From Octopus vulgaris (taxonomy: Eukaryota), in the NCBI GenBank assembly GCA_951406725.2, contig OX597814.1:5332001-5396000 (forward strand): a DNA stretch of 64,000 bases. Direction: 5' to 3'. Below the pieces are notes generated by a model. The model had not been told where the DNA came from and searched no databases. It worked only from the letters and a program-made list of their open reading frames with translations. Below are positions 10,868 to 47,934 of the stretch, one piece after another (within the stretch, counting starts at the first letter, position 1; each line of letters starts with the position of its first letter). The position numbers and the translations under genes were made by a program.

Positions 10868-12488
10868 TCTTCCCAAAAATTTTTGAAAAATTTTTCACCA
10901 AAATTTGTGAAAATTTTCTTCAAAAACTTTTGAAAGAATTTTGAAAATTTTTCTCAAAAATTTTTGAAAATTTTTCATAAAATTTTTTAAAAAATTTTCC
11001 CAAAGATTTTTGAAAATTTCTCCCAAAAATTTTTGACAATTTTCCCCAAAGATTTTTGAAAATTTTCCCCCAAAATTTTTGAAAATTTTCCTCAAAAAAC
11101 TTTGAAAAGTTTAAAAAAAAATTTTGCAAACATTTTTGAAAATTTTCCCCCAAAAGTTATTTAAAATTTTTCCCGAACATTTAAAAAAGATTTCTCCCAA
11201 ACATTTTTGAAAATTTTGCACAAAAATTTTTGAAAAGTTTAAAAAATTTTCGCAAACATTTTTGAAAATTTTCCCCCAAAAGTTATTCAAAATTTTTCCG
11301 AACATTTACAAAAATTTGTCCCAAACATTTTTGAAAATTTTCCCCCAAAATTTTTGAAAATTTTCCTCAAAAATTGTTTTTTAAATTTTTGAAAATTTCT
11401 CGCAAACATTTTTGAAAGTTTTCCCCAAAAATTATTCAAAATATTTCACAAAGATATTTCAAAAGATTTTTTGGAAAATTTTCACCGAAAATTTTACCCA
11501 AAAATTTTCACCAACAATTTTTCGAAAATTTTTGCTGAAAATTTTACGCAAAAATTTTCACCAAAAATTTTCCCCAAAAGTTTTTCGAAAATTTTCCCCA
11601 AAAATTTTTCGAAAATCTTCCCCAAAAAATTTTCGAAAATTTTCCGAAAATTTTCACAACAATTTTACGAAAATATTCCCAAGAATTTATCAAAAAAATT
11701 TTCCGAAAATCTTACCCAAAAATTTTTGGAAAATGTACACCGAAAATTTTTCGTATATTTTACCCGAAAATTTTCCCCAAAAATTTTTCGAAAGTTTTCA
11801 CCGAAAATATACACCAACAATTTCTCGAAAATTTTTGCCGAAAATTTTCCCCAAAAATTTTTCGAAAATTTTCACCGCCCAGAAATTTTCAACAAAAATT
11901 TTTCGAAAATTTTCACCAGAAATTTTACCCCAAAATTTTAACCAAGATATTTTCCGAAAAGTTTCAATAAAATTTTTCGAAAATTTTCACAGAAAATTTT
12001 CCCCAAAAATTTTTCGAAAGTTTTCACCGAAAAATTTCCCCCAAAATTTTTGGAAAATTTTCGAAAATTTTACCCAAAAATTTGTCGAAAATTTTCACCA
12101 ACAATTTTTCCCAAAATTTTACCCAAAAATTTGTCGAAAATTTTCACAGAAAATTTTCTTCACAAATTTTTCAAAAATTTTCAACTAAAATTTTCACCTA
12201 AAATTCTACTCAAAAGTTTTTCGAAAATTTTCCCCAAAAATTTTTTAGAAAATTTTCACCAACAATTTTTCGAAAATTTTACCCAAAAATATTCCGAAAA
12301 TTTTACCCAAATATTTCTCGAAAATTTTTGCCGAAAATTTTCACTAAAAATTTTTTAAAATCTTTCGAAAATTTTGCACGAAATTTAAAATCTTTCGAAA
12401 ATTTTCCACGAAATTTTCCTAAAAAATTTTTCGAAAATTTTCACCAAAAATTTTTCTTTCGAAAATTTTCACCAAAAATTTTCCCCCA
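10868..12488. repeat. Low-complexity minisatellite, ~21-22 bp unit CCCAAAAATTTT(T/C)GAAAATTTT
   Basis: Directly visible degenerate tandem array flanked by dinucleotide microsatellites. Confidence 0.95.
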
Positions 12489-12836
12489 ATATGTGAGCGT
12501 GTGTAGATTTTATATATGTGTATGTATGTGAATGTATATATATGTGTGTGTGTGCCGGCGCGCGCATATATGCGTGTATGTGTCCGTGTGTTGAATCTTA
12601 AAGGCCAGCTAAGGAGAATCATATGTGTAACCAACCATGAAGAACAAATCAACAGTATAAAGAAATAAAATATCAATCTCTTTGAAACGGCAACCACTTT
12701 AAGGGTACGAGAATCACCATCCCACTACATTTACGTATTCAAAGCACTTTGAATACGTAAATAGGCTTTGTGACTACTACGAAAATTTTCGAAATAGAAG
12801 CCGAGGATTTTTAATTTACAGAGACAATATTTACAT

Positions 12837-14407: not shown

Positions 14408-14409
14408 TT

Positions 14410-16700
14410 TCCTATAAAAACTGTTTCAGGTTTTCTTCTTTTGAAAACTACCCTACGAGCTTTACAGTTGTATGCCAGACGTGTTTGGAGACATTTTGGC
14501 AGTGGTGTACTGCAATTGACAGCAAAACGGGAGCATCCCTGGTTTTGTGAGCCAAGGAGCCGTAACACTGCAGAAGAAAGATCTAAACAAGGGGGATATA
14601 ATAGATAACTTTAGGCCCATCACTCTGCTTAATGCAGACTTGAAAATTTTGGCCAAGGTGTTAGCCAAGAGGTTGGCGCTTGGCATCGAGAAACTGATCG
14701 AAAAGGCACAAACGTGCGCTGTGCTGGGCTGGAGCATCCATGACAACCTCCATCTGATACGCTACGTCATTGACAGGATAGTTAAGGAACCTGACATGGG
14801 TGGGGCCCTGATCAATTGGATCAATCGAAAACTTTCGATAGGGTAGACTATCGATACTTGGAGCCTGTCCTCAGAGTGGCTGGTTTCGGTCCTGACTTCC
14901 GCGGCTGGATAGCCGCTTTGTACAGAGGTATCTGCTCGGTAATTCGCATAAATGGACATCTATCAAGACCTTTCAACATTGCACGTTCGGTCTGTCAGGG
15001 ATGCCCCCTCTCGTCGCTTCTATACGTATTGACTATCGAGCCATTACTGCGGAAGCTGGTGACTCTGAGGGACATCCCGCGAGAATTGGGATGCGGGACG
15101 AGCGTGTCCGCATACGTGGACAACGTCACCATCATAGTGTCTAGCCACGAGCACATCGAGCAGGTTGGCGAGACACAGAAAGACTACAAAGCGGTGACAG
15201 GAGCGAAAATCAACTGGAAAAAGTCAGTGGGCTTGTGGCTCGGCACCTGGAGAAGCAAGCCCATGCCGTCCACCAGCGCCTCCATTGTGGGACACTGGAC
15301 CGATGGTCCGGTTGAGTTGCTCGGCGTCTGGTTTGGTCCGGACCTCCAAATGGAGAAGAACTGGAATGAGATAACGAGTAAGGTGGTCAAGCTCACTTGG
15401 CAATAGGCCGAGAGGAAACTGTCCCTAAAAGGTCAGGTGGAGGTGGCGAACATGTACATCGCGTCCATCATCTACTACTGCCTGGCCGTTGTACCTTGTC
15501 CTGACCCTTCCATCACCAAACTAGAATGCATTCTCTTCCGCTTCTTGTGGAAAGAATGTGTCCCGATGGTCAAGTAATCCATTTGCTGTCAACACCCGTT
15601 AAAAGGAGGACTGGGCATGATGTGGTTGATGATGCGCAGAAACGCGCTGAGACTGCGACATTTCCAGCTCTATGTAGACGATGGTCGCCGTTTGTGAGGC
15701 ACGCTTTCCTGCAACTTGTCTCCATGACCGCACTGCAGTCATGGATCAAAAAGAGGCCGAGGAAGGCCGAGTGTCGCGTTGCCCTCAAGCAACTATGCCG
15801 GCCTGGGTTGACCTTCAGCAACTTCAACACACCCAAAGCATTCTTTAGGGGATTAGTGGAGGGGAGGTATGATGAGCTCGGGGTGAACCTGGGCGTTGAT
15901 GAGGAATACCTGACCCGTCTGTTCAGGACGACTTTCGGGCCAGGACCTATGGACAACTTCCAGAGATCCCTGGCCTGGTAGTGCTACCGAGAAGCGCTAC
16001 CTGTTTAGGATAAGCTCTATAGACAAGGCTCGAGAAAAACGGAGCCGACCTGTGGGCTTATGTCGAACGACTGCTGTTACGTGGGGGATGAGTCGGTTTA
16101 TCAGCCGAGTCTATCGTCAATATTGTCACGCCTCCTTCCTTCAAACGGGGAGGAAGAGCTATTTTCATCATACTTGTGGCTATGGCGAAAGAATGTATCT
16201 GGTGGACGCATCTGAAAGGATTAGAGACAAATACTTTCCTCTCTGGTCAATCTCTCATCAACTTCTTCAAGTATCACTTGAAAAGGAAAGTGAGAGTAGA
16301 GAGGCAAGTTTTGTCTAGCGAATGTTTCAAAAAAAAGATGGGTGAACGTAGCAAGGATGGCACGTATGAATGACGAAGCCACCTTGACCATAATCCTATG
16401 AACCCGGAAAAATTTAAAACAGAGGGTTACCTACTTGCAAACAAATGTGTTAACATGTGACCTACTTGCAAACAAATGTGTTAACATGTGACATTATTGA
16501 CCGAAGTTACCGTGGTCTTTTCCGTAGGCTTTTCTTTCCACGGATAAACCTTATATGCTTCCCCCTTTACACGTTACATCATGACATTTCTGTGATACAC
16601 GATCGCTATTGATTGTTTTTTTTTCTCCCCCAAAAAGAAAAGCTCTACTTTGTAATTTGTCCCGTCTGTGTTCAGCCCTGTGTGGCTAATAAAGAAACAT
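14410..16700 (+). mobile_element. 5'-truncated L1/Tx1-clade LINE, frameshifted
   Basis: NFRPITLLNADLKILAKVLAKRL, DQSKTFDRVD, SVCQGCPLSSLLYVL, AYVDN (YADD-like), LGVWFG; AATAAA at 16688-16693. Confidence 0.88.
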
Positions 16701-16776
16701 ATTTTTTATGTCGTCTGTTGTAAATAATAATAAAATATATTTCAAGGTAAATTGTGTTAAAAGAGGGCAGAGGAGA

Positions 16777-16799
16777 AGTGTTTTTCTCGGAAAAACACT
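16777..16799. promoter_or_regulatory. GAS (STAT) element TTCTCGGAA within a 23-bp palindrome
   Basis: AGTGTTTTTC-TCG-GAAAAACACT; core TTCN3GAA at 16784-16792; function inferred. Confidence 0.45.
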
Positions 16800-16854
16800 G
16801 ATGTCATACAAAGTTGTTGTTAAACCAACCAACACCTTAAAAACGATCAAATAA

Positions 16855-16873
16855 AGTTTCAAGTTTCACTTTT
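16855..16873. promoter_or_regulatory. ISRE/IRF-E-like motif
   Basis: AGTTTCAAGTTTCACTTTT, tandem GAAA half-sites on minus strand, close to the AGTTTCNNTTTC consensus; ~20 bp before a consensus donor AG|GTAAGT at 16891/16892. Confidence 0.4.
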
Positions 16874-16891
16874 GCTCAGAGTTGTGACGAG
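16860..16891 (+). other. Candidate non-coding first exon of the PARP14-like gene (start unknown)
   Basis: Consensus donor GAG|GTAAGT in non-repetitive sequence just downstream of the GAS/ISRE motifs. Confidence 0.35.
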
Positions 16892-17499
16892 GTAAGTTTT
16901 TTTCGTTTTACATCTTCCTAATTTAATTTCTTTAATCCCGTCTCTCCATTGCTTTACAAATACTTTACAAAATCGATTTCAATACTTTTCCTTACATTAT
17001 AACTACATGGATTTGTTTCCTCTCAATTTTAAGAATGTATGTGTGTGTGTTTGTGTGTGCATGTGTGTGTGCGTATTTCCAAGTTTTGTAGGTATATGTG
17101 ATGTGTGTCATTACGTATGTCTGCAAAGCCATCGATATTTTCCCCCATCATCGGAACCTACAGCCTCTTAAAGCTATTTCTAGTAAATTTCATTCAAGAA
17201 CATCAACTTTTCTGAAAGTTACGAACAAACAAAATCGATGGAGGGGCACCTGTCTAGGTATGCCATGTTTTCTTGGTCATGAAATGAAGACCTGTAATAA
17301 AGTCACAAATAATTTGTCCCCCACCCCACCCAGGACAAAAGTCTCCTCGGACACCCCTCCCATAGTTTTCCTGTGACTTCTTTTTACCCGGGTTCCGTAA
17401 GATTATGTTGCAAGTTTTAACGTACGTCAAGCTAGAAATGGCAGCCAAATCTCCTCATATAGGGCACATCCAAGAAGGACAATTGCTTCATTAACAGGG

Positions 17500-17705
17500 A
17501 TACCAACACATCAGAAACGTTAGCACGCCGAGCGAAATACTTGGCGTTATTTCGTCTGTCTTTACTTTCTGAGTTCAAATTCTGCCAAAGTCGACTTTGC
17601 CTTTCATCCTTCTGGAGTCTATAAAATAAGTATCCGTGGGTTGATCTAATCGACTGGCCTCCTTCCCAAAAATTTTGGGCCTTGTGCCACAAGAAGAAAA
17701 GAATA
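17500..17705 (+). mobile_element. SINE (box B-like GAGTTCAAATTC) with tail related to the 115-bp satellite
   Basis: Ends TAAAATAAGTA..GGGTTGATCTAATCGACT..GGCCTTGTGCC; similar tail at 27480-27580. Confidence 0.7.
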
Positions 17706-17880
17706 TTTGAGACGATGGAGCTTTGTGGCAAATGACTGCCCCAGTAGAATGAAAATATATAGCAAATCTGGTCTAGGTTTGAAACAGGAGTTGTAGTGAG
17801 AAGCAACTCGTTTGGATTTGGTTTGAATCTCCGTACATACATACAGATATAGTATTCATTTCATACACACACACACACAC

Positions 17881-18247
17881 ATCGTGGCACTCCGTCGGTT
17901 GCGACGATGAGGGTTCCAGTTGATCCGATCAACGGAACAGCCTGCTCGTGAAATTAACGTGCAAGTGGCTGAGTACTCCACAGACACGTGGATCTCTCAG
18001 GGAGATTCAGTGTGACACAGAGTGTGTCGAGCCTGGCCCTTTGAAATACAGGTACAACAGGAAGAAGGACTGAGAGAAAGTTGCGGTGAAAGGGTACAGC
18101 AGGGTTCGCCACCAACCATTGCCGGGACCTCGTGGAGCTTTGTGTTTTCGCTCAATAAACACTCACAGCACCGGGTCTGGGGATCAAAACCGCGATCCTA
18201 CGACCGCGAGTCCACTGCCCTAACCACTGGGCCGTTGTGCCTCCACA
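17881..18247 (-). mobile_element. tRNA-derived SINE
   Basis: Minus strand head GGCCCAGTGGTTAGGG (box A-like) and GGTTTTGATCCCC (box B-like); further copies at ~35220-35345 and ~35640-35950. Confidence 0.75.
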
Positions 18248-18639
18248 CATAGACATATACAATACCTGTATACATTGATAAATGCTGTGTGGTTTTTAGT
18301 GAAAACGTGGGAATTATTTATCCAAGATTTCCCAACAGGTTTTCTATTAATTGAAGCCGCTTTAGTAAAAGGTTACTCTGTAATGTTTGTTGATCACGGA
18401 AATCTATTTACACGTTACGTCATCTTTTTTTACTGAGATTCATTTTCTGTCTTAATTTTATTGCTTTCATTTTGATTTCTTGGGTGTGGCGTTAAAAGGC
18501 CGTAACATGACACATGGGTTTTTGTTTAGATGTTTTCTTTCTCTCTTTCTTCCTTCCTTTATTTCCCCCTCTCCCCCGCCCCCCCTCTCTCTCTCTCTCG
18601 TTTTCGTCCTTCTGTGCCCCCTCCCACCAACTTTGTTTC

Positions 18640-20150
18640 CCTGTAACTTTCAGAGAAATGGGTATGGCTGTTATTGGTGGACCTGGCAAACGGTCACCGC
18701 CCCCGAAACCGACCATTCCAACTCTTTCTTTCACTGGATTCCTGTTTTCCATGACGGAGATTCCGAATATACAAAAAAAAAAAAAACCCCAAAACAACCC
18801 ACGTTTTCAAAATTTCTAATTCCCCCTCCCCTCCTTTTTAATTTCAATCTTTTTTTCCTAATTTTCTTTTCCAATCTACATGGAGGGCACTGTCATGCTT
18901 TTAGTTGTCAGGAGGAAAGTAGAAAAAGTGTGACGTCAATTTGACGTCACGTCCACCTTCGTTTGTTTCCGTAAAATATACGGTCTTCTATAATTTGTAA
19001 AAGGGTATCCGCTGTCCGATCTTCCACTGCCACTAAAAAACATCTTCTGGTATCTCTTTCTAAAGCACCAAATACCCACTGCGTTTTAACCCGATGGCCA
19101 ACATCATACTTTCTTCTAACAAACGCGCTTTCGTCTATCTCTACAATTCGATTCGGCCCTCCGGAGATTAAGAATAAGGTGTGGGATGGGATTTAATTTG
19201 AAATTTTCTATGAAAATCTCAGAAATTGATCCACACCCCTTCGTCGCCTCATCCGGCTGTCTAAAAGTGAAGATGAACATTTGTTTTGTCTGTTTGCGCA
19301 TGCGTAGATTTGTAGTGAAAAAGCAAAAGAATCAGGGCATGCGAAGCGCTCACCACGAAACTCAATATGCTAAAAATAACAGCTAAATGTCTGGAGAATT
19401 TTTGCATTTGTGTGTGCGCACGCGCAACAATTTCTGCAGCTTATCCAAATGAACAGAGAAAGTACACAGAAATATGTTTGGTTAATGTTGACATTGTTTC
19501 AATTTTTCTTAAAGTAACTCAAATTCCTTCCCCCAACCTGCACCCATCACCTCCGAATGTTTTACCGTTAGCATTTTTTAAAGCATCGAAGTTTTTCTTG
19601 AAATAATGTCGTTTAGCTGTTGTTTCTAGCACGTTGGGATTTCTGGTGGTGGTCTGATATTTTTGACATCTGCTATTTCAGTAGAATTCTATGCATTTGT
19701 GAAACATCAGACGAAAGTGAAACATTCTGAGTTTTTAGTTTTTTGAAAGCAGGGAGATGATGGGTGGTTGAGGTGGGGGAAGGGGCATTGTGTGTTTCTT
19801 AAAGAAAAACACACAATGAATTTTTTTTAAATTCTAAAAAGAGTTTAAAATTAAGAAATCAAAATTTTGAAAACTGGATTTTTTGACAAAACCATATTCT
19901 CCTATATCAAACACAGATATTCAAAAGAGTTTTTGGAAAAACACACCATAAATGGGTGGTGTACACATTCTTTACCTTTGCCAAATTTCATGGTTTTAAC
20001 AGGTGTAGTGTTTATCTTTACTTTAAAAAAGTGTGGTTGTTTGTATGTTTGGAATCTCCATCATCGAAAACAGGAATCCAGTGCAAATAAAAATAATCAG
20101 AAAGGTTAGTTTTGGGGTTGGTAACTGTGCACCAGGTCTGCCATAAAAAT
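18640..20150. repeat. Long degenerate foldback (nested inverted repeats), probably DNA-transposon derived
   Basis: 18732-18772 vs 20043-20083, ~18800-18850 vs ~19830-19878 and ~19350-19392 vs ~19606-19650 are reverse-complement matches in nested order. Confidence 0.6.
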
Positions 20151-20793
20151 ACATGGTGGGTGCACACATATTAATGGGGGTATGGTGCAAAATTAGTAAA
20201 CGGGGCAAAATGAGTAACTTCTGATTTCTTCCTCCCTATGTGAAATCCCTTACTTCGTAAGCATTGCATCGCCATTTTGTATTGCTACATTATACTTGGG
20301 GATAAAAACTGGTTGTTGCTGTTGAAGTTGTGGAAGTACAAAGCATAGTCAAGGGGCAGGTCCCCTTTTTTTTTGTGAAGAAATTTCTCTTCAACTTTGA
20401 CCCAATTGTAATTGAGGTTGCTAATAAAATATCTGGATAATCTTTCATGCTAAACAATCAATATTGATTTCTCTGCTTGATTCCAAGTTGATTTTTCCTC
20501 ATACTAATGTCTAATTTGATAATCTTCAAGTTTCCCAAAAGTTACAACGAGTAATGACTAATTTCAGTAATTTCTTCTCTTTAACTGCATGGTGGGTAAA
20601 TGTATCATGAAGGGAACATTCCAGCAGATCGTGAAGAAGAAGAAGAAGAATATTTTATGTTGGGTTTTCTTATATTTAGTTGAATTTCATTAATTTCATA
20701 TCCTGTGCCATTTTTTCCCTGATCCTCTTTCATTTTATTTAGATTTTTAAATGTTATTCTTTTGGCATGTCTGAATGTTTCTGACGTTTTCAG

Positions 20794-20846
20794 ATGGATA
20801 TCTGTATGCGTCTGTTTTCTGAAGAACTGAAGTAGTTTTTTGTAGG
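20794..20846 (+). other. Candidate 5' UTR exon containing a 13-codon uORF
   Basis: CTGAC branch-like site + TTTTCAG acceptor, GG|GTAAGT donor; ATG..TAG encodes MDICMRLFSEELK. Confidence 0.35.
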
Positions 20847-20999
20847 GTAAGTAAGCATTTGTGACAAAAATTTCTTTTATCTCAAACTCAAAAATGCATT
20901 AAATGCATCTCATTCGAGGCACATCACAATGTTTTTCCAAATTTCAAGTTTCATTTTGTGAATCTCTGTGAAGTGTGTCAGTATGTATGTGACCCACCT

Positions 21000-21560
21000 A
21001 TTTTAATAAGACTAGCATCAACAGAAACCTGAAAAGAAAACCTGCTGTAGAAAGGGTGTCACGGTAGCCAAAAGCTGCCCTTTAATCTCAGATTCCTACA
21101 AAGCCCTCCTCACTGTCACTTCTATAATGCTTCACTTGGACATATGTCTTTGTCAAGTCTACAAAGCAATTCCATTATACTTTCTGGCAAATTCTCACAA
21201 TTTCTCAAAGACCTGCTGTGGAGAGAATATCTGGTTGGTTGTGCCACGGCTAGGATGGAAACCACACTGATGTTCTTCCTCACATCTCTTTTCCAGACAT
21301 CAAGGAGGCTCAACAAAGAGTTTCCTCGAATCAGAGTTCTCTCTCTCTCTCTTCCTTTCTTTCTTGTCCCTTTTTGAAAATGATGATTACCACTCTGACC
21401 TGCCATTGCTTTGGTGTCTTTCCAGAGTTCCAAGCCATTTGGAATACATGAGACAGCCAGAGAATACCTTCTCCATTTAAGTTCTTTCACACCTCAGGCT
21501 CAGTTTCGTCCTCCCCCCCTTGTGCCGCTTGTCCACATTTTAGCAATTTAGTCACATCTG
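21000..21560 (-). mobile_element. RTE-clade RT fragment
   Basis: Minus frame reads EEHQCGFHPSRGTTNQIFSPQQVFEKL*EFA (QxGF..R.T.DQIF motif). Confidence 0.7.
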
Positions 21561-21654
21561 TGTCTTTAGCGTCTGTTAGTTTAGTCTTCATCCCTAGATG
21601 CACCTCCTGTCCACCGGAAGATTTTATTGTAACTGGAAACCAGAACTTTTGGCA

Positions 21655-21800
21655 TTGTCATCATCATCATTGTTCGACCGTGGTCGAGACAATGGAATTT
21701 ACTATGTTACGCCAGACTTCACGGTCCATCATAGCATTACGGAGGTCCTGTTGCTGGATGCCTGTATCCCTGGAGATTACAGGGCATTGTACAACAGAAA
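21655..21800 (-). mobile_element. LINE 3' end (RTE/RTE-X-like) with (TGA)n tail
   Basis: ISRDTGIQQQDLRNAMMDREVWRNIV followed by TGATGATGA. Confidence 0.65.
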
Positions 21801-22584
21801 GAACACCTATTTTTCCGTAAGTTGTAAGATAGTTGTTTTTACAAAATATGTAAAACATCTGAATGAGGTTTATCAAGAGTATGCACAGGAAAAAAATTAA
21901 GTTCTTTAATAATATGTTGTCTTTCAGAGATTCATTAAAAGAGAGAGAGAGAGAGAGTGGGAAAGGAGGGTGTGTGTGCTCATGTGTTCTAAGTTGGTCG
22001 ATCAAAGCAGTGAGAGAGAATGTCTATTCATGTTATATGAACCAAGATTGGTAAAACAACCTCAAGCAAAGTCAACTTACTCCTCAAGATTCTTTATGTA
22101 AAGCATTGGTAAGGCACCAAAGAATGGCATTGTGACAGGAATACAACAACCCCAACGAAGCAATTGACCAATCACAATTGCTGTATTATGTGGTTAAAGA
22201 CCAATGCGTTGTTTGCAGAAAACAGACCCTGGGAAAAAGCTAGTGAACTTTTGCACATCTTCCTCCCAACTCATACAGATGGCTCACACTAGGAAGGCCA
22301 GACTCACTTGCATTTTATGTGATATTATGCAGAGCCCCTTGTTTGCACCTTCCATGACAATACCTCTTACCAGCTTAAAAACTGGACAGTGTTTTTGCTT
22401 GCTGTCAACCATTGTCAACTGGTAAACATTTTGATTTTATAAACACAGGCATTTGTGCATTCATTTTCTATCACACGTTTGGCTAACACGTTATTCAGCT
22501 GACTTTGTTAAATGTGAAAATATCTTTTGTACATTCTCACAAACACACGTAAACCTTATTACCTTGCATAATGTTGTCAATTAA

Positions 22585-22802
22585 CCTTTTAGCATTTAGA
22601 CTGGCCAAATCTGGCCCTAGCATATAACATGTTTTATATTTAAACTGGAAAGATCCGGCCTTTGTAACACCTGCCCTACAATGTCATGCTAAAAAGATAA
22701 TCACGTTATCACAATGTTTAAGCTATGAGATAATGGCATCGATTCAAAACAATGTGAATAGACAAGCATTGCATTTGGCTGAGGAATCTGAATGGTAAAG
22801 GG
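22585..22802. mobile_element. piggyBac-type MITE
   Basis: TTAA|CCTTTTAGCATTTAGA ... TCTGAATGGTAAAGGG imperfect TIRs; right TTAA absent. Confidence 0.6.
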
Positions 22803-22986
22803 GGGAGATGGATTCCTGTCTGAATTCTGCCCAGTTGTTCTGATCTCTCTCTTAACTGTAATTATATGAGAGAGAGAGAGAGAGAGAGAATTTACTTTGA
22901 CAACAAATGATGTATTTAATACCTTAACAATGTTTTTTCCTAATTATTTTCTTTTCATTTGCAGAGCAAAAATACATGTTGAAATC

Positions 22987-22999
22987 ATGGAAAAGAGAG
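22987..22999 (+). CDS. PARP14-like gene, candidate first coding exon (exon 22965-22999; MEKR + 1 nt)
   Basis: Strong acceptor TTTTCTTTTCATTTGCAG, ATCATGG start context, donor AG|GTATTT; phase 1 matches next exon. Confidence 0.55.
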
Positions 23000-30017: not shown

Positions 30018-30251
30018 ATTTTGAGAATGTTCAGAGGATGTGTCCAGAAACCCCCTTTGATGGAAATCAACTGGAAGTGGAAAGAATTGAGGAAATAAAC
30101 AGTGTTCAAGTGAAAAACGTTTCTTCAAATGTCAGCTCTGAGAGTCTTCAAAGTTATTTTGGAGACAGAGAAAGAAGTTCTGGTGGAGATATTTCTTCAG
30201 TTCATCAACAAACCTCTGATACTTACATTATAAGTTTTAAAGAGGCGTATG
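30018..30251 (+). CDS. PARP14-like gene exon, RRM-like domain
   Basis: CTGCAG acceptor, G|GTAAGT donor, 234 nt phase 1-1; SVQVKNVSSNVSSESLQSYFGDRERSSGGDI..YIISF resembles PARP14-family RRM (L.LYF.....SGGG). Confidence 0.85.
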
Positions 30252-40958: not shown

Positions 40959-43900
40959 CTCCTGAAATTGCTGGCCTTGCGCCAAAATTTGAAACCAAAA
41001 CTCCAGTGTTGTTTATGGTCAATAAAATAAGTACCAGTTGAGCACTGGGGTAGATATAATTGACTTACCCACTCTCCTGAAATTGCTGGCCTTGAGCCAA
41101 AATTTAAAACCAAAATTCCAGTGATGTTTATGGTCAATAAAATAAGTACCAGTTGATCACTGTGGTTGATGTAATTGACTTAGACACTCACCTGAAATTG
41201 CTAGCCTTGTGCCAAAATTTAAAACCAAAATTCCAGCGATGTTTATGGTCAATAAAATAAGTACCAGTTGATCACTGGTGTTGATGTAATTGACTTAGAC
41301 ACTCTCCTGAAATTGATGGCCTTCTGCCAAAATTTAAAACCAAAATTCCAGTGATGTTTATGGTCAATAAAATAAGTACCAGTTGATCACTGGGGTTGAT
41401 GTAATTGACTTAGACACTCTCCTGAAATTGCTAGCCTTGTGCCAAAATTTAAAACCAAAATTCCAGTGATGTTTATGGTCAATAAAATAAGTACCAGTTG
41501 ATCACTGGTGTTGATGTAATTGACTTAGCCACTCTCCTGAAATTGCTGGCCTTGTGCCAAAATTTAAAACCAAAATTCCAGCGATGTTTATGGTCAATAA
41601 AATAAGTACCAGTTGATCACTGGTGTTGATGTAATTGACTTAGACACTCTCCTGAAATTGATGGCCTTGTGCCAAAATTTAAAACCAAAATTCCAGTGAT
41701 GTTTATGGTCAATAAAATAAGTACCAGTTGAGCACTGGTGTTGATGTAATTGACTTAGACCACTCTCCTGAAATTGTGGCCTTCTGCCAAAATTTAAAAC
41801 CAAAATTCCAGTGATGTTTATGGTCAATAAAATAAGTACCAGTTGAGCACTGGGGTTGATGTAATTGACTTAGACACTCTCCTGAAATTGCTGGCCTTGT
41901 GCCAAAATTTAAAACCAAAATTCCAGTGATGTTTATGGTCAATAAAATAAGTACCAGTTGAGCACTGGGTTGATGTAATTGACTTAGACACTCTCCTGAA
42001 ATTGCTGGCCTTCTGCCAAAATTTAAAACCAAAATTCCAGTGATGTTTATGGTCAATAAAATAAGTACCAGTTGAAAATTTAAACACTGGTTTATGGTTG
42101 ATGTAATTGACTTAGCACTCTCCTGAAATTGTGGCCTTCTCCAAAATTTAAAACCAAAATTCCAGTGATGTTTATGGTCAATAAAATAAGTACCAGTTGA
42201 TCACTGGGTTGATGTAATTGACTTAGACACTCTCCTGAAATTGCTGGCCTTCTGCCAAAATTTAAAACCAAAATTCCAGTGATGTTTATGGTCAATAAAA
42301 TAAGTACCAGTTGATCACTGGGGTTGATGTAATTGACTTAGCACTCTCCTGAAATTGCTGGCCTTCTGCCAAAATTTAAAACCAAAATTCCAGTGATGTT
42401 TATGGTCAATAAAATAAGTACCAGTTGATCACTGGGGTTGATGTAATTGACTTAGACACTCTCCTGAAATTGCTGGCCTTCTGCCAAAATTTAAAACCAA
42501 AATTCCAGTGATGTTTATGGTCAATAAAATAAGTACCAGTTGATCACTGGGGTTGATGTAATTGACTTAGACACTCTCCTGAAATTGCTGGCCTTCTGCC
42601 AAAATTTAAAACCAAAATTCCAGTGATGTTTATGGTCAATAAAATAAGTACCAGTTGATCACTGGGGTTGATGTAATTGACTTAGACACTCTCCTGAAAT
42701 TGCTGGCCTTCTGCCAAAATTTAAAACCAAAATTCCAGTGATGTTTATGGTCAATAAAATAAGTACCAGTTGAGCACTGGGGTTGATGTAATTGACTTAG
42801 ACACTCTCCTGAAATTGCTGGCCTTCTGCCAAAATTTAAAACCAAAATTCCAGTGATGTTTATGGTCAATAAAATAAGTACCAGTTGATCACTGGGGTTG
42901 ATGTAATTGACTTAGACACTCTCCTGAAATTGCTGGCCTTCTGCCAAAATTTAAAACCAAAATTCCAGTGATGTTTATGGTCAATAAAATAAGTACCAGT
43001 TGAGCACTGGGGTTGATGTAATTGACTTAGCCACTCTCCTGAAATTGATGGCCTTCTACCAAAATTTAAAACCAAAATTCCAGTGATGTTTATGGTCAAT
43101 AAAATAAGTACCAGTTGATCACTGGGGTTGATGTAATTGACTTAGACACTCTCCTGAAATTGCTGGCCTTCTGCCAAAATTTAAAACCAAAATTCCAGTG
43201 ATGTTTATGGTCAATAAAATAAGTACCAGTTGATCACTGGGGTTGATGTAATTGACTTAGACACTCTCCTGAAATTGCTGGCCTTCTACCAAAATTTAAA
43301 ACCAAAATTCCAGTGATGTTTATGGTCAATAAAATAAGTACCAGTTGAGCACTGGTGTTGATGTAATTGACTTAGACACTCTCCTGAAATTGCTGGCCTT
43401 CTGCCAAAATTTAAAACCAAAATTCCAGTGATGTTTATGGTCAATAAAATAAGTACCAGTTGAGCACTGGTGTTGATGTAATTGACTTAGACACTCTCCT
43501 GAAATTGCTGGCCTTCTGCCAAAATTTAAAACCAAAATTCCAGTGATGTTTATGGTCAATAAAATAAGTACCAGTTGATCACTGGGGTTGATGTAATTGA
43601 CTGAGCCACTCTCGCGAAATTGCTGGCCTTCTACCAAAATTTAAAACCAAAATTCCAGTGATGTTTATGGTCAATAAAATAAGTACCAGTTGAGCACTGG
43701 GGTTGATGTAATTGACTTAGCCACTCTCCTGAAATTGCTGGCCTTGTGCCAAAATTTGAAACCAAAATTCCAGTGATGTTTATGGTCAATAAAATAAGTA
43801 CCAGTTGAGCAGTGGGGTTGATGTAATTGACTTAGCCACTCTCCTGAAATTGGTGGCCTTGAGCCAAAATTTGAAACCAAAATTCCAGTGATGTTTATGG

Positions 43901-46163
43901 TCAATAAAATAAGTACCAGTTGAGCACTGGGGTTGATGTAATTGACTTAGACACTCTCCTGAAATTGCTGGCCTTGAGCCAAAATTTGAAACCAAAATTC
44001 CAGTGATGTTTATGGTCAATAAAATAAGTACCAGTTGAGCACTGGGGTTGATGTAATTGACTTAGACACTCTCCTGAAATTGCTGGCCTTTGCCAAAATT
44101 TGAAACCAAAATTCCAGTGATGTTTATGGTCAATAAAATAAGTACCAGTTGAGCACTGGGGTTGATGTAATTGACTTAGCCACTCTCCTGAAATTGCTGG
44201 CCTTGTGCCAAAATTTAAAACCAAAATTCCAGTGATGTTTATGGTCAATAAAATAAGTACAAATTGAGCACTGGAGTTGATGTAATTGACTTAGACGCTG
44301 TCTTGAAATTGCTGGCCTTGAGCCAAAATTTGAAACCAAAATTCCAGTGATGTTTATGGTCAATAAAATAAGTACCAGTTGAGCACTGGGGTTGATGTAA
44401 TTGACTTAGCCACTCTCCTGAAATTGGTGGCCTTATGCCAAAATTTGAAACCAAAATTCCAGTGATGTTTATGGTCAATAAAATAAGTACCAGTTGAGCA
44501 CTGGGGTTGATGTAATTGACTTAGCCACTCTCCTGAAATTGCTGGCCTTATGCCAAAATTTGAAACCAAAATTCCAGTGATGTTTATGGTCAATAAAATA
44601 AGTACCAGTTGAGCACTGGGGTTGATGTAATTGACTTAGACACTCTCCTGAAATTGGTGGCCTTATGCCAAAATTTGAAACCAAAACTCCTGTGATGTTA
44701 ATGGTCAATGAAATAAGTACCAGTTGAGCACTGGGTTTGATGTAATTGACTTCGTCACTCTCAAGAAGTTGGTGGCGTTGTGCCAAAATTTTAAACCAAA
44801 ATTCCAGTGATGTTTATGGTCAATAAAATAAGTACCAATTGAGCAGTGGGGTACATGTAATTGACTTAGCCACTCTCCTGAAATTGCTGGCCTTGTGCCA
44901 AAATTTGAAACTAAAATTCCAGTGATGTTTATGGTCAATAAAATAAGTACCAGTTGAGCACTAGGGTTGAGGTAATTGACTTCGACACTCCCCTGAAATT
45001 GCTGGCCTTGTGCCAAAATTTGAAAGCAAAATTCCAGTGATGTTTATGATCAATAAAATAAGTACCAGTTGACCACTGGGGTTGATGTAATTGACTTAGA
45101 CATTCTCCTGAAATTGGTGGCCTTGTGACAAAATTTAAAACCAAAATTCCAGTGATGTTTATGGTCAATAAAATAAGTACCAATTGATCACTGGGGTTGA
45201 TGTAATTGACTTAGACACTCTCCTGCGAAATTGCTGGCCTTGTGCCAAAATTTGAAACCAATAAAATAAGTACCAGTTGAGCACTGTGGTTGAGGTAATT
45301 GACTTAGACACTCTCCTGAAATTGCTGGCCTTGTGCCAAAACAAAATTCCAGTGATGTTTATGGTCAATAAAATAAGTACCAGTTGAGCACTGGGGTTGA
45401 TGTAATTGACTTAGACACTCTCCTGAAATTGCTGGCCTTCTGCCAAAATTTGAAAGCAAAATTCCAGTGATGTTTATGGTCAATAAAATAAGTACCAGTT
45501 GAGCACTGGGGTTGATGTAATTGACTTAGCCACTCTCCTGAAATTGCTGGTGTTGTGCCAAAATTTAAACCAAAATTCCAGTGATGTTTATGGTCAATAA
45601 AATAAGTACCAGTTGAGCACTGGGGTTGATGTAATTGACTAGCCACTCTCCTGAACTTGCTGGTTTCGTGCCAAAATTTGAAAGCAAAATTCCAGTGATG
45701 TTTATGGTCAATAAAATAAGTACCAATTGAGCACTGGGGTTGATGTAATTGTCTTAGCCACTCTCCTGAACTTGCTGGTTTCGTGCCAAAATTTGAAAGC
45801 AAAATTCCAGTGATGTTTATGGTCAATAAAATAAGTACCAGCTGAGCACTGGGGTTGATGTAATTGACTTAGCCACTCACCTGAAATTGCTGGCCTTGTG
45901 CCAAAATTTGAAACCAAAATTCCAGTGATGTTTATGGTCAATAAAATAAGTACCAATTGAGCACTGGGGTACATGTAATTGAGATAGCCACTCTCCTGAA
46001 ATTGCTGGCCTTGTGCCAAAATTTAAAACCAAAATTCCAGTGATGTTTATGGTCAATAAAATAAGTACCAATTGAGCACTGGGGTTGATGTAATTGACTT
46101 AGACACTCTCCTGAAATTGCTGGCCTTGTGCCAAAATTTGAAACCAAAATTCCTGTGATGTTT
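40959..46163. repeat. 115-bp tandem satellite, ~45 copies, intronic
   Basis: Unit GTCAATAAAATAAGTACCAGTTGAGCACTGGGGTTGATGTAATTGACTTAG...CCAGTGATGTTTATG; ORF track repeats at 115-nt steps. Confidence 0.98.
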
Positions 46164-46369
46164 CTAGTATTTATTATAATTAATAGAGATAGTGTTTACT
46201 TAGTATCAGTTAAATGTTGATTATATTTTCCTGTTTGCTAATGTATTATAATAATAACTTATAACTTTGTCTTCAAATACTTTTCTGTCTTTACCCACTG
46301 AACTCCCCAGCTCACCCCTAATCCCTCACCAACGAAATTATTTTATCTTTTTACTTTTTCATAATTTAG

Positions 46370-47893
46370 TTGTGCTGGACGTTTGTAGCAGAGATCATAT
46401 ACTGCAAAATGTGAAGTTAGATGTTCAACCGTTCTGGGAACCATGTGAAGAAAATACCATTTCAAGCCAGCAAGTCCATGACTATTTACTACCTTCCCAG
46501 TTCCATCTGACTTTCTTACAGAAACATAAAATCAAAGTTAATGACCAATTAAAGAAATGGGCTGAAGTAATTTGGAAAGATTCCAAGTTTAATAAACTGA
46601 AATTAAAATATTCTGAAGAAAATTTTGAGGAAATTGAAAAATGTTTGGAAGATTTATTAAATTCCATTACTATTGAAACTATTGATGTTCCAACTGATAT
46701 GTTTGAGGACATTGTTAGAACATTTAACAGTGAAGCCGACCAAAGGTATTTTTATTTTGATAACCGGAATTTCCAAGCTCATATTTTGGGATTTGATACA
46801 AGTAATGTAATTAAAATGAAAAAGAGACTTTTGGATAATCTTAGAACGGAACGTGAGGATGATTTAAATATTCATGAAAAACGTATTCTATCTGGTCTCA
46901 GATTTCGTGAGCAGGCAGAAAGACAATCTGAAGATCTAAAAGTCAGAATTTATGTTAACAAAGTTATTTTTAAAGGCCACACTTCGAAAATAGCCGAATG
47001 TCAAAAGGATATGAATAAAATACTTCAGTCAGTTGTAAGATCGAAACTGGGTTTGCCTTTAAATACTGGAATGATCATAAATAAAAAACCAGTGAAAGAA
47101 TATCTTGATGAAAAACTGAGAAACAAGAAATGTATCGGTTCATGGGAAACGGGTGATGGTGATTCAGTAATACTTTATGCAAGTGATAAAACACATCTTT
47201 CACTTTTGGAAGAAATCATGAAAGAAACTTTTGTTGCCAATACACTGGATTTTGTGGACAAAATTAAGGATACTCCAAGTCATGTAAAGTGGCTGACATT
47301 AGTTAAAAGTGTAAAAGAAGAGTTTCTAGATTTCTGTTTTATTGGAGAAAAGTCTATTGTTGCTGTTGATGCTGTAGTTAATGTTATAAAAAGCGAAATT
47401 GATAACTTTAAGCAATCTTTAAATTATGAATCTTATATACCGATGAATCGTGCACATTTCCTCTTTCTTAAAGAGTTCAAAGAACAGGAAATCAATGACT
47501 TTAGTGAGAAAAATAAAATTAAGAATGTGTGTCTGAAAGATAATAAGTTACACCTGGATGGAACACAAGAGCAAATTAGGAAAATGGAAACATTTATAGA
47601 AAATTTAAGGAAAGATATCAGCTCAAAAGATGCAACATTTAGATCTCAAGAAACCCAGAAAAGTGAAGAAGGAAAGAATTTCTCATGGGAAAAGCAGATG
47701 AAATCTGAGAGTAAAAAATTAAATTCAGATTTAGGAAGTGAAACAAATGAAATAGTTAATGTTAAGTATAAGAACTGTGAAATAGTGTTGAAGGAAGGTG
47801 ACATCACGACTCTGGACACAGATGCTATTGTTAATGCTGCAAATGGCAGACTGGAACACTGGGGTGGGGTTGCAGCAGCCATTGTGCAGAAAG
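46370..47893 (+). CDS. PARP14-like gene large exon: KH-like region + first half of macrodomain
   Basis: TTTAG acceptor, G|GTTAGT donor, 1524 nt phase 1-1, open; ends GDITTLDTDAIVNAANGRLEHWGGVAAAIVQKG. Confidence 0.92.
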
Positions 47894-47934
47894 GTTAGTA
47901 ATACCATTTTTTATAGTTAATGTTTCTTTTTAGA

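Follow-up and report, generated by a model that had tools for sequence, protein, structure and literature searches.

A segment found 29 times in the Octopus vulgaris genome is, judged from the placement of its copies, the shared promoter region and non-coding first exon of a family of PARP14-like genes. This family promoter is probably a signal-inducible switch (we put the probability at about 0.6), at which a STAT5-like protein would act through GAS sites and IRF1/2-like proteins through IRF sites. One copy lies in the stretch of 64,000 nucleotides analysed here (the window), where the first-pass annotation had proposed a STAT/IRF-inducible promoter of a PARP14-like gene. The feature appears to be real and larger than the one described there, being a family-wide promoter with candidate STAT and IRF sites that is echoed at genes of the pathway itself. 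What survives of the original proposal is the first-exon region and a GAS and IRF core kept in paralogs; the palindrome and the double ISRE on which it also relied found no support as special elements. The features of the window are collected in Table 1.

Table 1. Features of the promoter segment and of the PARP14-like gene in the window (positions of the window; "copies" are the 29 genomic copies of the segment)
Feature	Position	Strand	Remarks
Displaced 40-base remnant of the upstream promoter half	14408..14447	+	Without distal IRF site
5'-truncated LINE that interrupts the window promoter some 190 bases ahead of the donor	14449..16702	+	RVT_1 matches
Degenerate TATA-like site, TTAAAAG in window, TATAAAAG in some paralogs	16757..16763	+	TATA(A/T)A in 11/29 copies
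23-bp palindrome with 10-bp arms around the GAS	16777..16799	.	Perfect in window copy; perfect in 3/29 copies
Proximal GAS, TTCTCGGAA, flanked by T-run and A-run	16784..16792	.	TTCN3GAA intact in 27/29 copies
CRE-like TGATGTCA	16799..16806	+	Present in 25/29 copies
Non-coding first exon, minimum extent (at least 74 bases)	16818..16891	+	Run X1 contig ending at donor, 3 unplaced letters
CCAAC in window copy, CCAAT in most paralogs	16825..16829	+	CCAAT in 24/29 copies
Extra 5' half-site AGTTTCA	16855..16861	+	Doubled TTTC in 3/29 copies; ATTCA in most paralogs
Proximal IRF-E-like core AAAAGTGAAACT	16862..16873	-	Within non-coding first exon; GTTTCAnTTT in 23/29 copies
First intron, GT..AG, 6073 bases	16892..22964	+	Joint within one run X1 contig, depth 29.2
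Exon 2, likely start codon ATG 22987, MEKR	22965..22999	+	Reads RAKIHVEIMEKR; 14 copies
Exon 3, encoding a PARP14-type RRM; frame continuous with exon 2	30018..30251	+	
Large middle exon (exon 4), frame continuous with exon 3; 3' end is approximate	46370..47895	+	
Macrodomain exon	53640..53888	+	Pfam Macro E 7e-21

The window gene contains a PARP14-type RRM and macrodomains, and inspection shows its exons 2, 3 and 4 to be joined in one reading frame. The exon 2 peptide resembles the N-termini of two proteins (P0001 and P0007). A protein search with the middle exon matched 16 proteins among 7990 candidates scored, and the best 13 of these 16, at 66-82% identity, are Octopus proteins named PARP14-like. 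The gene extends beyond the end of the window with duplicated internal exons; no PARP catalytic domain was reached up to 50 kb past that end, and close homologs of the gene carry PF00644. Past the window end an exon copy (C1:5399202-5399409) was matched as two pieces that overlap, which suggests a frameshift, and is followed by a duplicated internal-exon block. Two long tandem arrays, recognizable by their repeating translations, are found in or near the gene (window 41600-46200 and 11385-12530).

The GAS, the 23-bp palindrome, the stretch AGTTTCAAGTTTCACTTTT (16855-16873) and the splice donor described in the first pass are all present in the sequence. The donor reads GAG/GTAAGT at 16891/16892, and GTAAG is conserved at this place in 28 of the 29 copies. 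Position 16891 was joined to 22965, with GT..AG ends, in a contig of the likely RNA run X1 (one run of four, among the joints listed), confirming at the level of the family one of the two splices that had been anticipated and, with it, a first-exon region about 6 kb before the coding exon 22965-22999. The other anticipated splice, to 20794, was not borne out: the joined contig skips the exon at 20795, which was discarded. The first-exon contig adjoining the junction spans 16818-16891 and stops at the donor. It best matches paralog L008, which shares its three differing letters, and for this reason the splice from 16891 to 22965 is shown for the family and not for the window copy itself. The C that is the window copy's own at 16829 was found in no contig of five likely RNA runs, all of which read T. 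The module was also found in runs of two other organisms (D and E), where, among the rows listed, the GAS differs only at spacer positions.

Since the first-exon contig reaches 16818, the IRF-like site lies inside exon 1 and not upstream of the transcript as had been supposed. A role of this site as Initiator was ruled out on the same ground, the spliced exon reaching at least to 16818. The start of the junction contig at 16865 was likewise rejected as a transcript start, as it fits a 30-base graph overlap instead. Low-depth unspliced contigs extend upstream of the GAS and cannot place the start; the TATA of 11 copies would set it on the GAS itself.

All 29 copies of the segment are located on a single contig (C1), in clusters at 5.3-9.3, 206 and 216 Mb, and a genome search with a diverged copy of the segment gave no further locus. 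Between distant copies, the homology starts about 350 bases upstream of the donor and ends 120 bases downstream of it. Counted by hand, 26 copies are followed on their own strand, at a distance of up to 90 kb, by a PARP14-like exon 2 or middle exon; for the remaining three (at 7.96-7.97 Mb) none was found in that range. Conversely, each of the 14 exon-2 matches has a copy of the segment upstream. The middle exon gave 27 matches at about 23 loci, in the same C1 clusters as the segment. These loci represent a large expansion, several of them with stops or split matches. The PARP14-like exon at C1:7548170 had no copy of the module in the 60 kb preceding it. We consider the segment a promoter with its first exon rather than a transposon because its copies sit upstream of PARP14-like exons on C1; they are not spread independently of one gene family, as those of a transposon would be, with 29 of 29 copies on this contig and 26 before such exons. 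The earlier description of the DNA as apparently non-repetitive was not confirmed, given the 29 genomic copies of the segment and the high-copy LINE directly upstream. A multicopy segment had been named as grounds for refuting the promoter; multicopy it is, and the copies appear to be promoters of a gene family.

In the window, GAS sites alone are no more frequent than chance (20 against 25.3 expected). The IRF-like site (TTTCACTTTT) does not match the canonical ISRE TTTCNNTTTC, which has 16 matches elsewhere in the window, and the core AAAGTGAAACT (16862-16872) is the sole match of its kind in the window; we assign it to the IRF-E type by its consensus. Of 5000 dinucleotide shuffles, 6 (0.12%) had both a GAS and an IRF-E core in the last 190 bases ahead of the donor, for a pattern chosen post hoc. 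The last four letters of the proximal IRF site are TTTT in place of TTTC, and 6 of the 29 copies have the site broken. The CRE-like element is likewise labelled by its consensus. Motif conservation among paralogs, an expectation of the first pass, held for the GAS and the 3' IRF core and failed for the perfect palindrome and the doubled TTTC (counts in Table 1). The scarcity of perfect palindromes speaks against a hairpin or special element, and the palindrome is probably incidental, its extent set by the length of the T-run; the 5' half-site AGTTTCA, for its part, appears to be recent.

Every one of the 28 donor-bearing copies keeps at least one GAS (TTCN3GAA). The proximal one has been lost in L024, where the distal GAS is present, and the sole copy without any GAS is the truncated L031. 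Alignment of the copies indicated that they differ at the proximal GAS mostly within its 3-base spacer, and part of this variation looks like CpG decay. In 11 of the 29 copies (L027 included) the first GAS is preceded, at a distance of about 47 bases, by a second one; in 2 further copies this second GAS has a 4-base spacer. Beyond it, about 290 bases before the donor, a distal IRF site (AANTGAAANNGAA) was matched in at least 18 of the 29 copies. It typically reads AAAAATGAAAGTGAAAT, nearer to the IRF1/2 consensus than the site at 16855-16873. For the upstream part alone, the shuffle P in six paralogs was 0.004, 0.017, 0.021, 0.13, 0.13 and 1.0. Both kinds of sites have been multiplied in tandem: the GAS pair gained copies to give 4 GAS in L026 and 5 in L029, and just upstream of L021 on C1 (L108:9081-9850) there are 25.7 tandem units of 30 bp, each with the distal IRF site. 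The rate of change was practically the same on the exon and intron sides of the module (0.93 vs 0.92 changes per column). The ends of the GAS were broken in one of 28 aligned copies, and 20 of 187 other windows of the same 3+3+3 design were equally well kept.

By its sequence, the promoter copy in the window ranks among the more damaged ones of the family. The LINE that splits it has 2645 candidate copies, of which 40 were scored and were 91-100% identical, and the insertion is common to the window copy and paralog L013. The distal IRF site, the distal GAS, the TATA and the CCAAT are absent here; one GAS and the exon-1 IRF core are kept. Having lost these elements, the window copy would respond more weakly than many of its paralogs, or not at all.

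We have also searched for the proteins that would read these sites. As the first pass had assumed for molluscs, the genome encodes both kinds, with one STAT and three IRFs. The single STAT locus was found through two domains, no second one appearing in these searches; its DNA-binding-domain exon is closest to STAT5, then to STAT6. A genome search with the STAT_bind domain gave no match, although the locus was found by other domains, and the linker exon gave no PDB match. Two of the three IRF loci keep WKH and FRCALNS, which we take to hold the DNA-contact residues. The second exon of the C10 IRF is closest to IRF1/2-type chains; the C1 IRF has a divergent recognition helix (FRNALNK). Searches for two other components gave one match in the genome for the RLR C-terminal domain and none for viperin.

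Motif clusters resembling the family promoter precede several of these genes and are presumably promoters themselves. At the STAT gene, TTCTTGGAA and AGTTTCACTTT lie 23 bases apart, about 19.7 kb before the first domain exon, with a donor 163 bases on. This candidate STAT promoter (L104, about C17:64011760, plus strand) brings together, in a span of about 190 bases, CCAAT, CACGTCA, GAS, an IRF site and a donor, and has no second copy among the loci examined. At the C1 IRF (L100, about C1:51115632, minus strand), TTCGGGGAA and GAAACTGAAACT are 17 bases apart, about 19.6 kb upstream, and a donor follows 181 bases on; the site 17 bases from TTCGGGGAA is a canonical ISRE, and TTCGGGGAA itself is the reverse of the human IRF1 GAS. 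About 15 kb upstream of the DNA-binding exon of the C25 IRF (L096, about C25:8919954, plus strand), three GAS are clustered in 80 bases, together with a donor. SOCS-box genes gave 31 matches, of which seven were read and one had an SH2 domain; upstream of its SH2 exon (L256:7137-7182) there are two GAS 7 bases apart with TTTCACTTTC beside them. For two of the three IRF genes no close pair turned up in the upstream stretches read. In the 70 kb upstream of the C10 IRF there are two ISRE-like sites, 62 bases apart and 16.7 kb before the gene (L092, about C10:37561705), with no GAS within 100 bases of them and no donor found nearby. Neither the RLR gene (80 kb upstream) nor three DTX genes (30 kb each) showed a close pair; the promoters of these genes and of the C10 IRF may lie outside the ranges given.

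With a limit of 40 bases between GAS and IRF core, pairs were found at 3 loci in the 380 kb of nine immune genes and at none in 700 kb of controls (p 0.044), a comparison in which the spacing was chosen after seeing the data, the motif definition was adjusted along the way and a common repeat word was excluded. With the limit at 100 bases the counts were 4 in 380 kb vs 2 in 700 kb (p 0.12). The controls comprised eight proteasome genes, six other SOCS-box genes and 40 random stretches. Because of the adjusted definition and the excluded word, the close pairs at the STAT gene, one IRF gene and the SOCS gene are suggestive only. Over the whole genome the composite pattern had 36 matches vs 5 for its reversed control; a genome-wide excess was nevertheless ruled out, as about 30 are expected from background counts and 14 of the 36 belong to three multicopy families, two of which were inspected and look like repeat or retroelement sequence. 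Looser composite definitions gave matches in the controls too. Words resembling a GAS are frequent, with 131 in 400 kb, and an unrelated repeat contains them too. The common repeat word GGAAACTGAAAG, with 35 occurrences in 400 kb (for example at about 36475 and 48067 of the window), imitates an IRF site, and the repeat GACTTCCTGGAAAGT imitates GAS clusters; both inflate motif scans in this genome.

That the segment has no role at this place, being a small dispersed repeat or else a dead promoter, is very improbable. Its multiplicity, the three copies for which no PARP14-like exon was found within 90 kb, and the state of the window copy, cut by a LINE and with its private letters absent from the RNA contigs, would all suit such an origin. 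They have to be reconciled with a segment whose copies all lie on one contig beside PARP14-like genes, which is spliced to a coding exon and which in the window precedes a gene with exons 2-4 in frame. A real promoter and first exon might also carry its GAS and IRF look-alikes as mere passengers of AT-rich DNA, kept through recent duplication, with the CCAAT, CRE-like and TATA elements driving transcription. The uniform conservation across exon and intron is what passengers would show, as is a GAS kept no better than 11% of other windows, and the abundance of GAS-like words, unrelated repeat included, and the lack of a genome-wide excess of composites agree with them as well. We regard this account as unlikely, as further GAS and IRF sites were found out of sample, every donor-bearing copy has kept a GAS, similar pairs occur at STAT, IRF and SOCS genes, and the tandem gains centre on the motifs.

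If STAT does bind, its input could be a general cytokine, growth or stress signal acting through the STAT5-like protein, the IRF sites setting basal or blood-cell expression. That the only STAT found is STAT5-like would fit this, and so would reports, from the parts of these papers available, that oyster IRFs also control haemocyte proliferation (PMC13524488) and that an octopus PARP14-like protein is more abundant in aquarium-kept animals (PMC11431876). Set against it, PARP14 is listed, in the accessible part of the study, among the antiviral effectors changing in oysters under herpesvirus disease (PMC12803857), and in Aplysia STAT5B, IRF1, PARP12 and DDX58 share one co-expression module, PARP14 being seen in another (PMC8195618, available portion). 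A purely non-antiviral input seems quite unlikely to us, and we return to the inducible switch as the preferred reading.

The steps of this switch that go beyond the anatomy of the sequence we infer as follows. A cytokine or nucleic-acid signal would activate the octopus STAT, and the activated STAT5-like dimer would bind the GAS near the transcript start, with IRF1/2-like proteins binding the distal and exon-1 IRF sites. The same signal would raise the STAT, IRF and SOCS genes through similar sites, placing the PARP14-like family under feed-forward and feedback control, and the output would be anti-pathogen ADP-ribosylation.

The closest known system is described, in the part of the source available, for human PARP14, which has a functional GAS+ISRE composite promoter and belongs to a set of composite genes with DTX3L, APOL6, STAT1, STAT2 and IRF9 (PMC10287828). 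As there, the octopus case concerns a PARP14-type gene whose promoter or 5' UTR contains a GAS and, at a variable distance from it, an IRF-type site; the pathway's own STAT gene also has a close pair. In the human genes the two sites adjoin one another and have been proven by ChIP and mutation, whereas those of octopus are predicted and are spaced by about 70 and 180 bases. The proteins that read the human sites after interferon are STAT1, STAT2, IRF9 and IRF1 (PMC10287828, same portion); in octopus only a STAT5-like protein was found, and the gene is one of a family of about 20. We do not class the octopus promoter with the human composites because the IRF-like site in the window is not a canonical ISRE, no proteins of the STAT1, STAT2 or IRF9 types were found and STAT and IRF binding is predicted only.

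Among invertebrates, IRF binding to ISREs and STAT/IRF motifs at induced genes are already known from what these sources give in the portions available (PMC13524488, PMC5869526, PMC8476169), oyster IRF1 for instance binding ISRE (PMC13524488). The octopus promoter would resemble these cases in ISRE-type sites read by invertebrate IRFs, and in JAK-STAT and antiviral effector induction without true interferon. As far as these portions go, they concern the cytokine-like gene or mammalian reporters, and neither a composite GAS+IRF promoter of an effector family or of STAT itself nor cephalopods. In Nematostella, poly(I:C)-induced genes have STAT, IRF and TATA motifs in their promoters, a likeness to octopus in that antiviral genes of an invertebrate bear motifs for both STAT and IRF; that result is, in the part available, a statistical scan with vertebrate matrices, gives no gene-level composite site and does not contain "PARP" in its main text (PMC8476169). 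Knockdown of IRF or STAT in the same animal left cGAMP-induced genes unreduced, according to the accessible part of PMC8713801. The available portion of PMC4199593 added nothing on promoters. Among the papers listed by full-text searches of a library with most subscription journals outside it, no title or abstract start described these promoters or the octopus PARP14 expansion.

A wider reading, which we advance tentatively and hold to be doubtful, is that octopus has an interferon-free, self-amplifying STAT-IRF circuit built of composite GAS+IRF promoters on STAT, IRF, SOCS and PARP14, the gene types that are human composite targets, with a wiring older than the mollusc-vertebrate split. The PARP14 family might then tune its response by gain and loss of sites, the extreme being one gene with about 26 IRF sites in tandem. 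The existence of an interferon-like transcriptional programme in invertebrates is debated, and the cis-elements of its target genes are poorly defined. The promoters described here offer concrete candidate sites that can be mutated on cephalopod PARP14-like, STAT, IRF and SOCS genes. Furthermore, the family provides 29 natural promoter variants, with 0 to 5 GAS and 0 to about 26 IRF sites, whose expression could be compared in one RNA-seq experiment.
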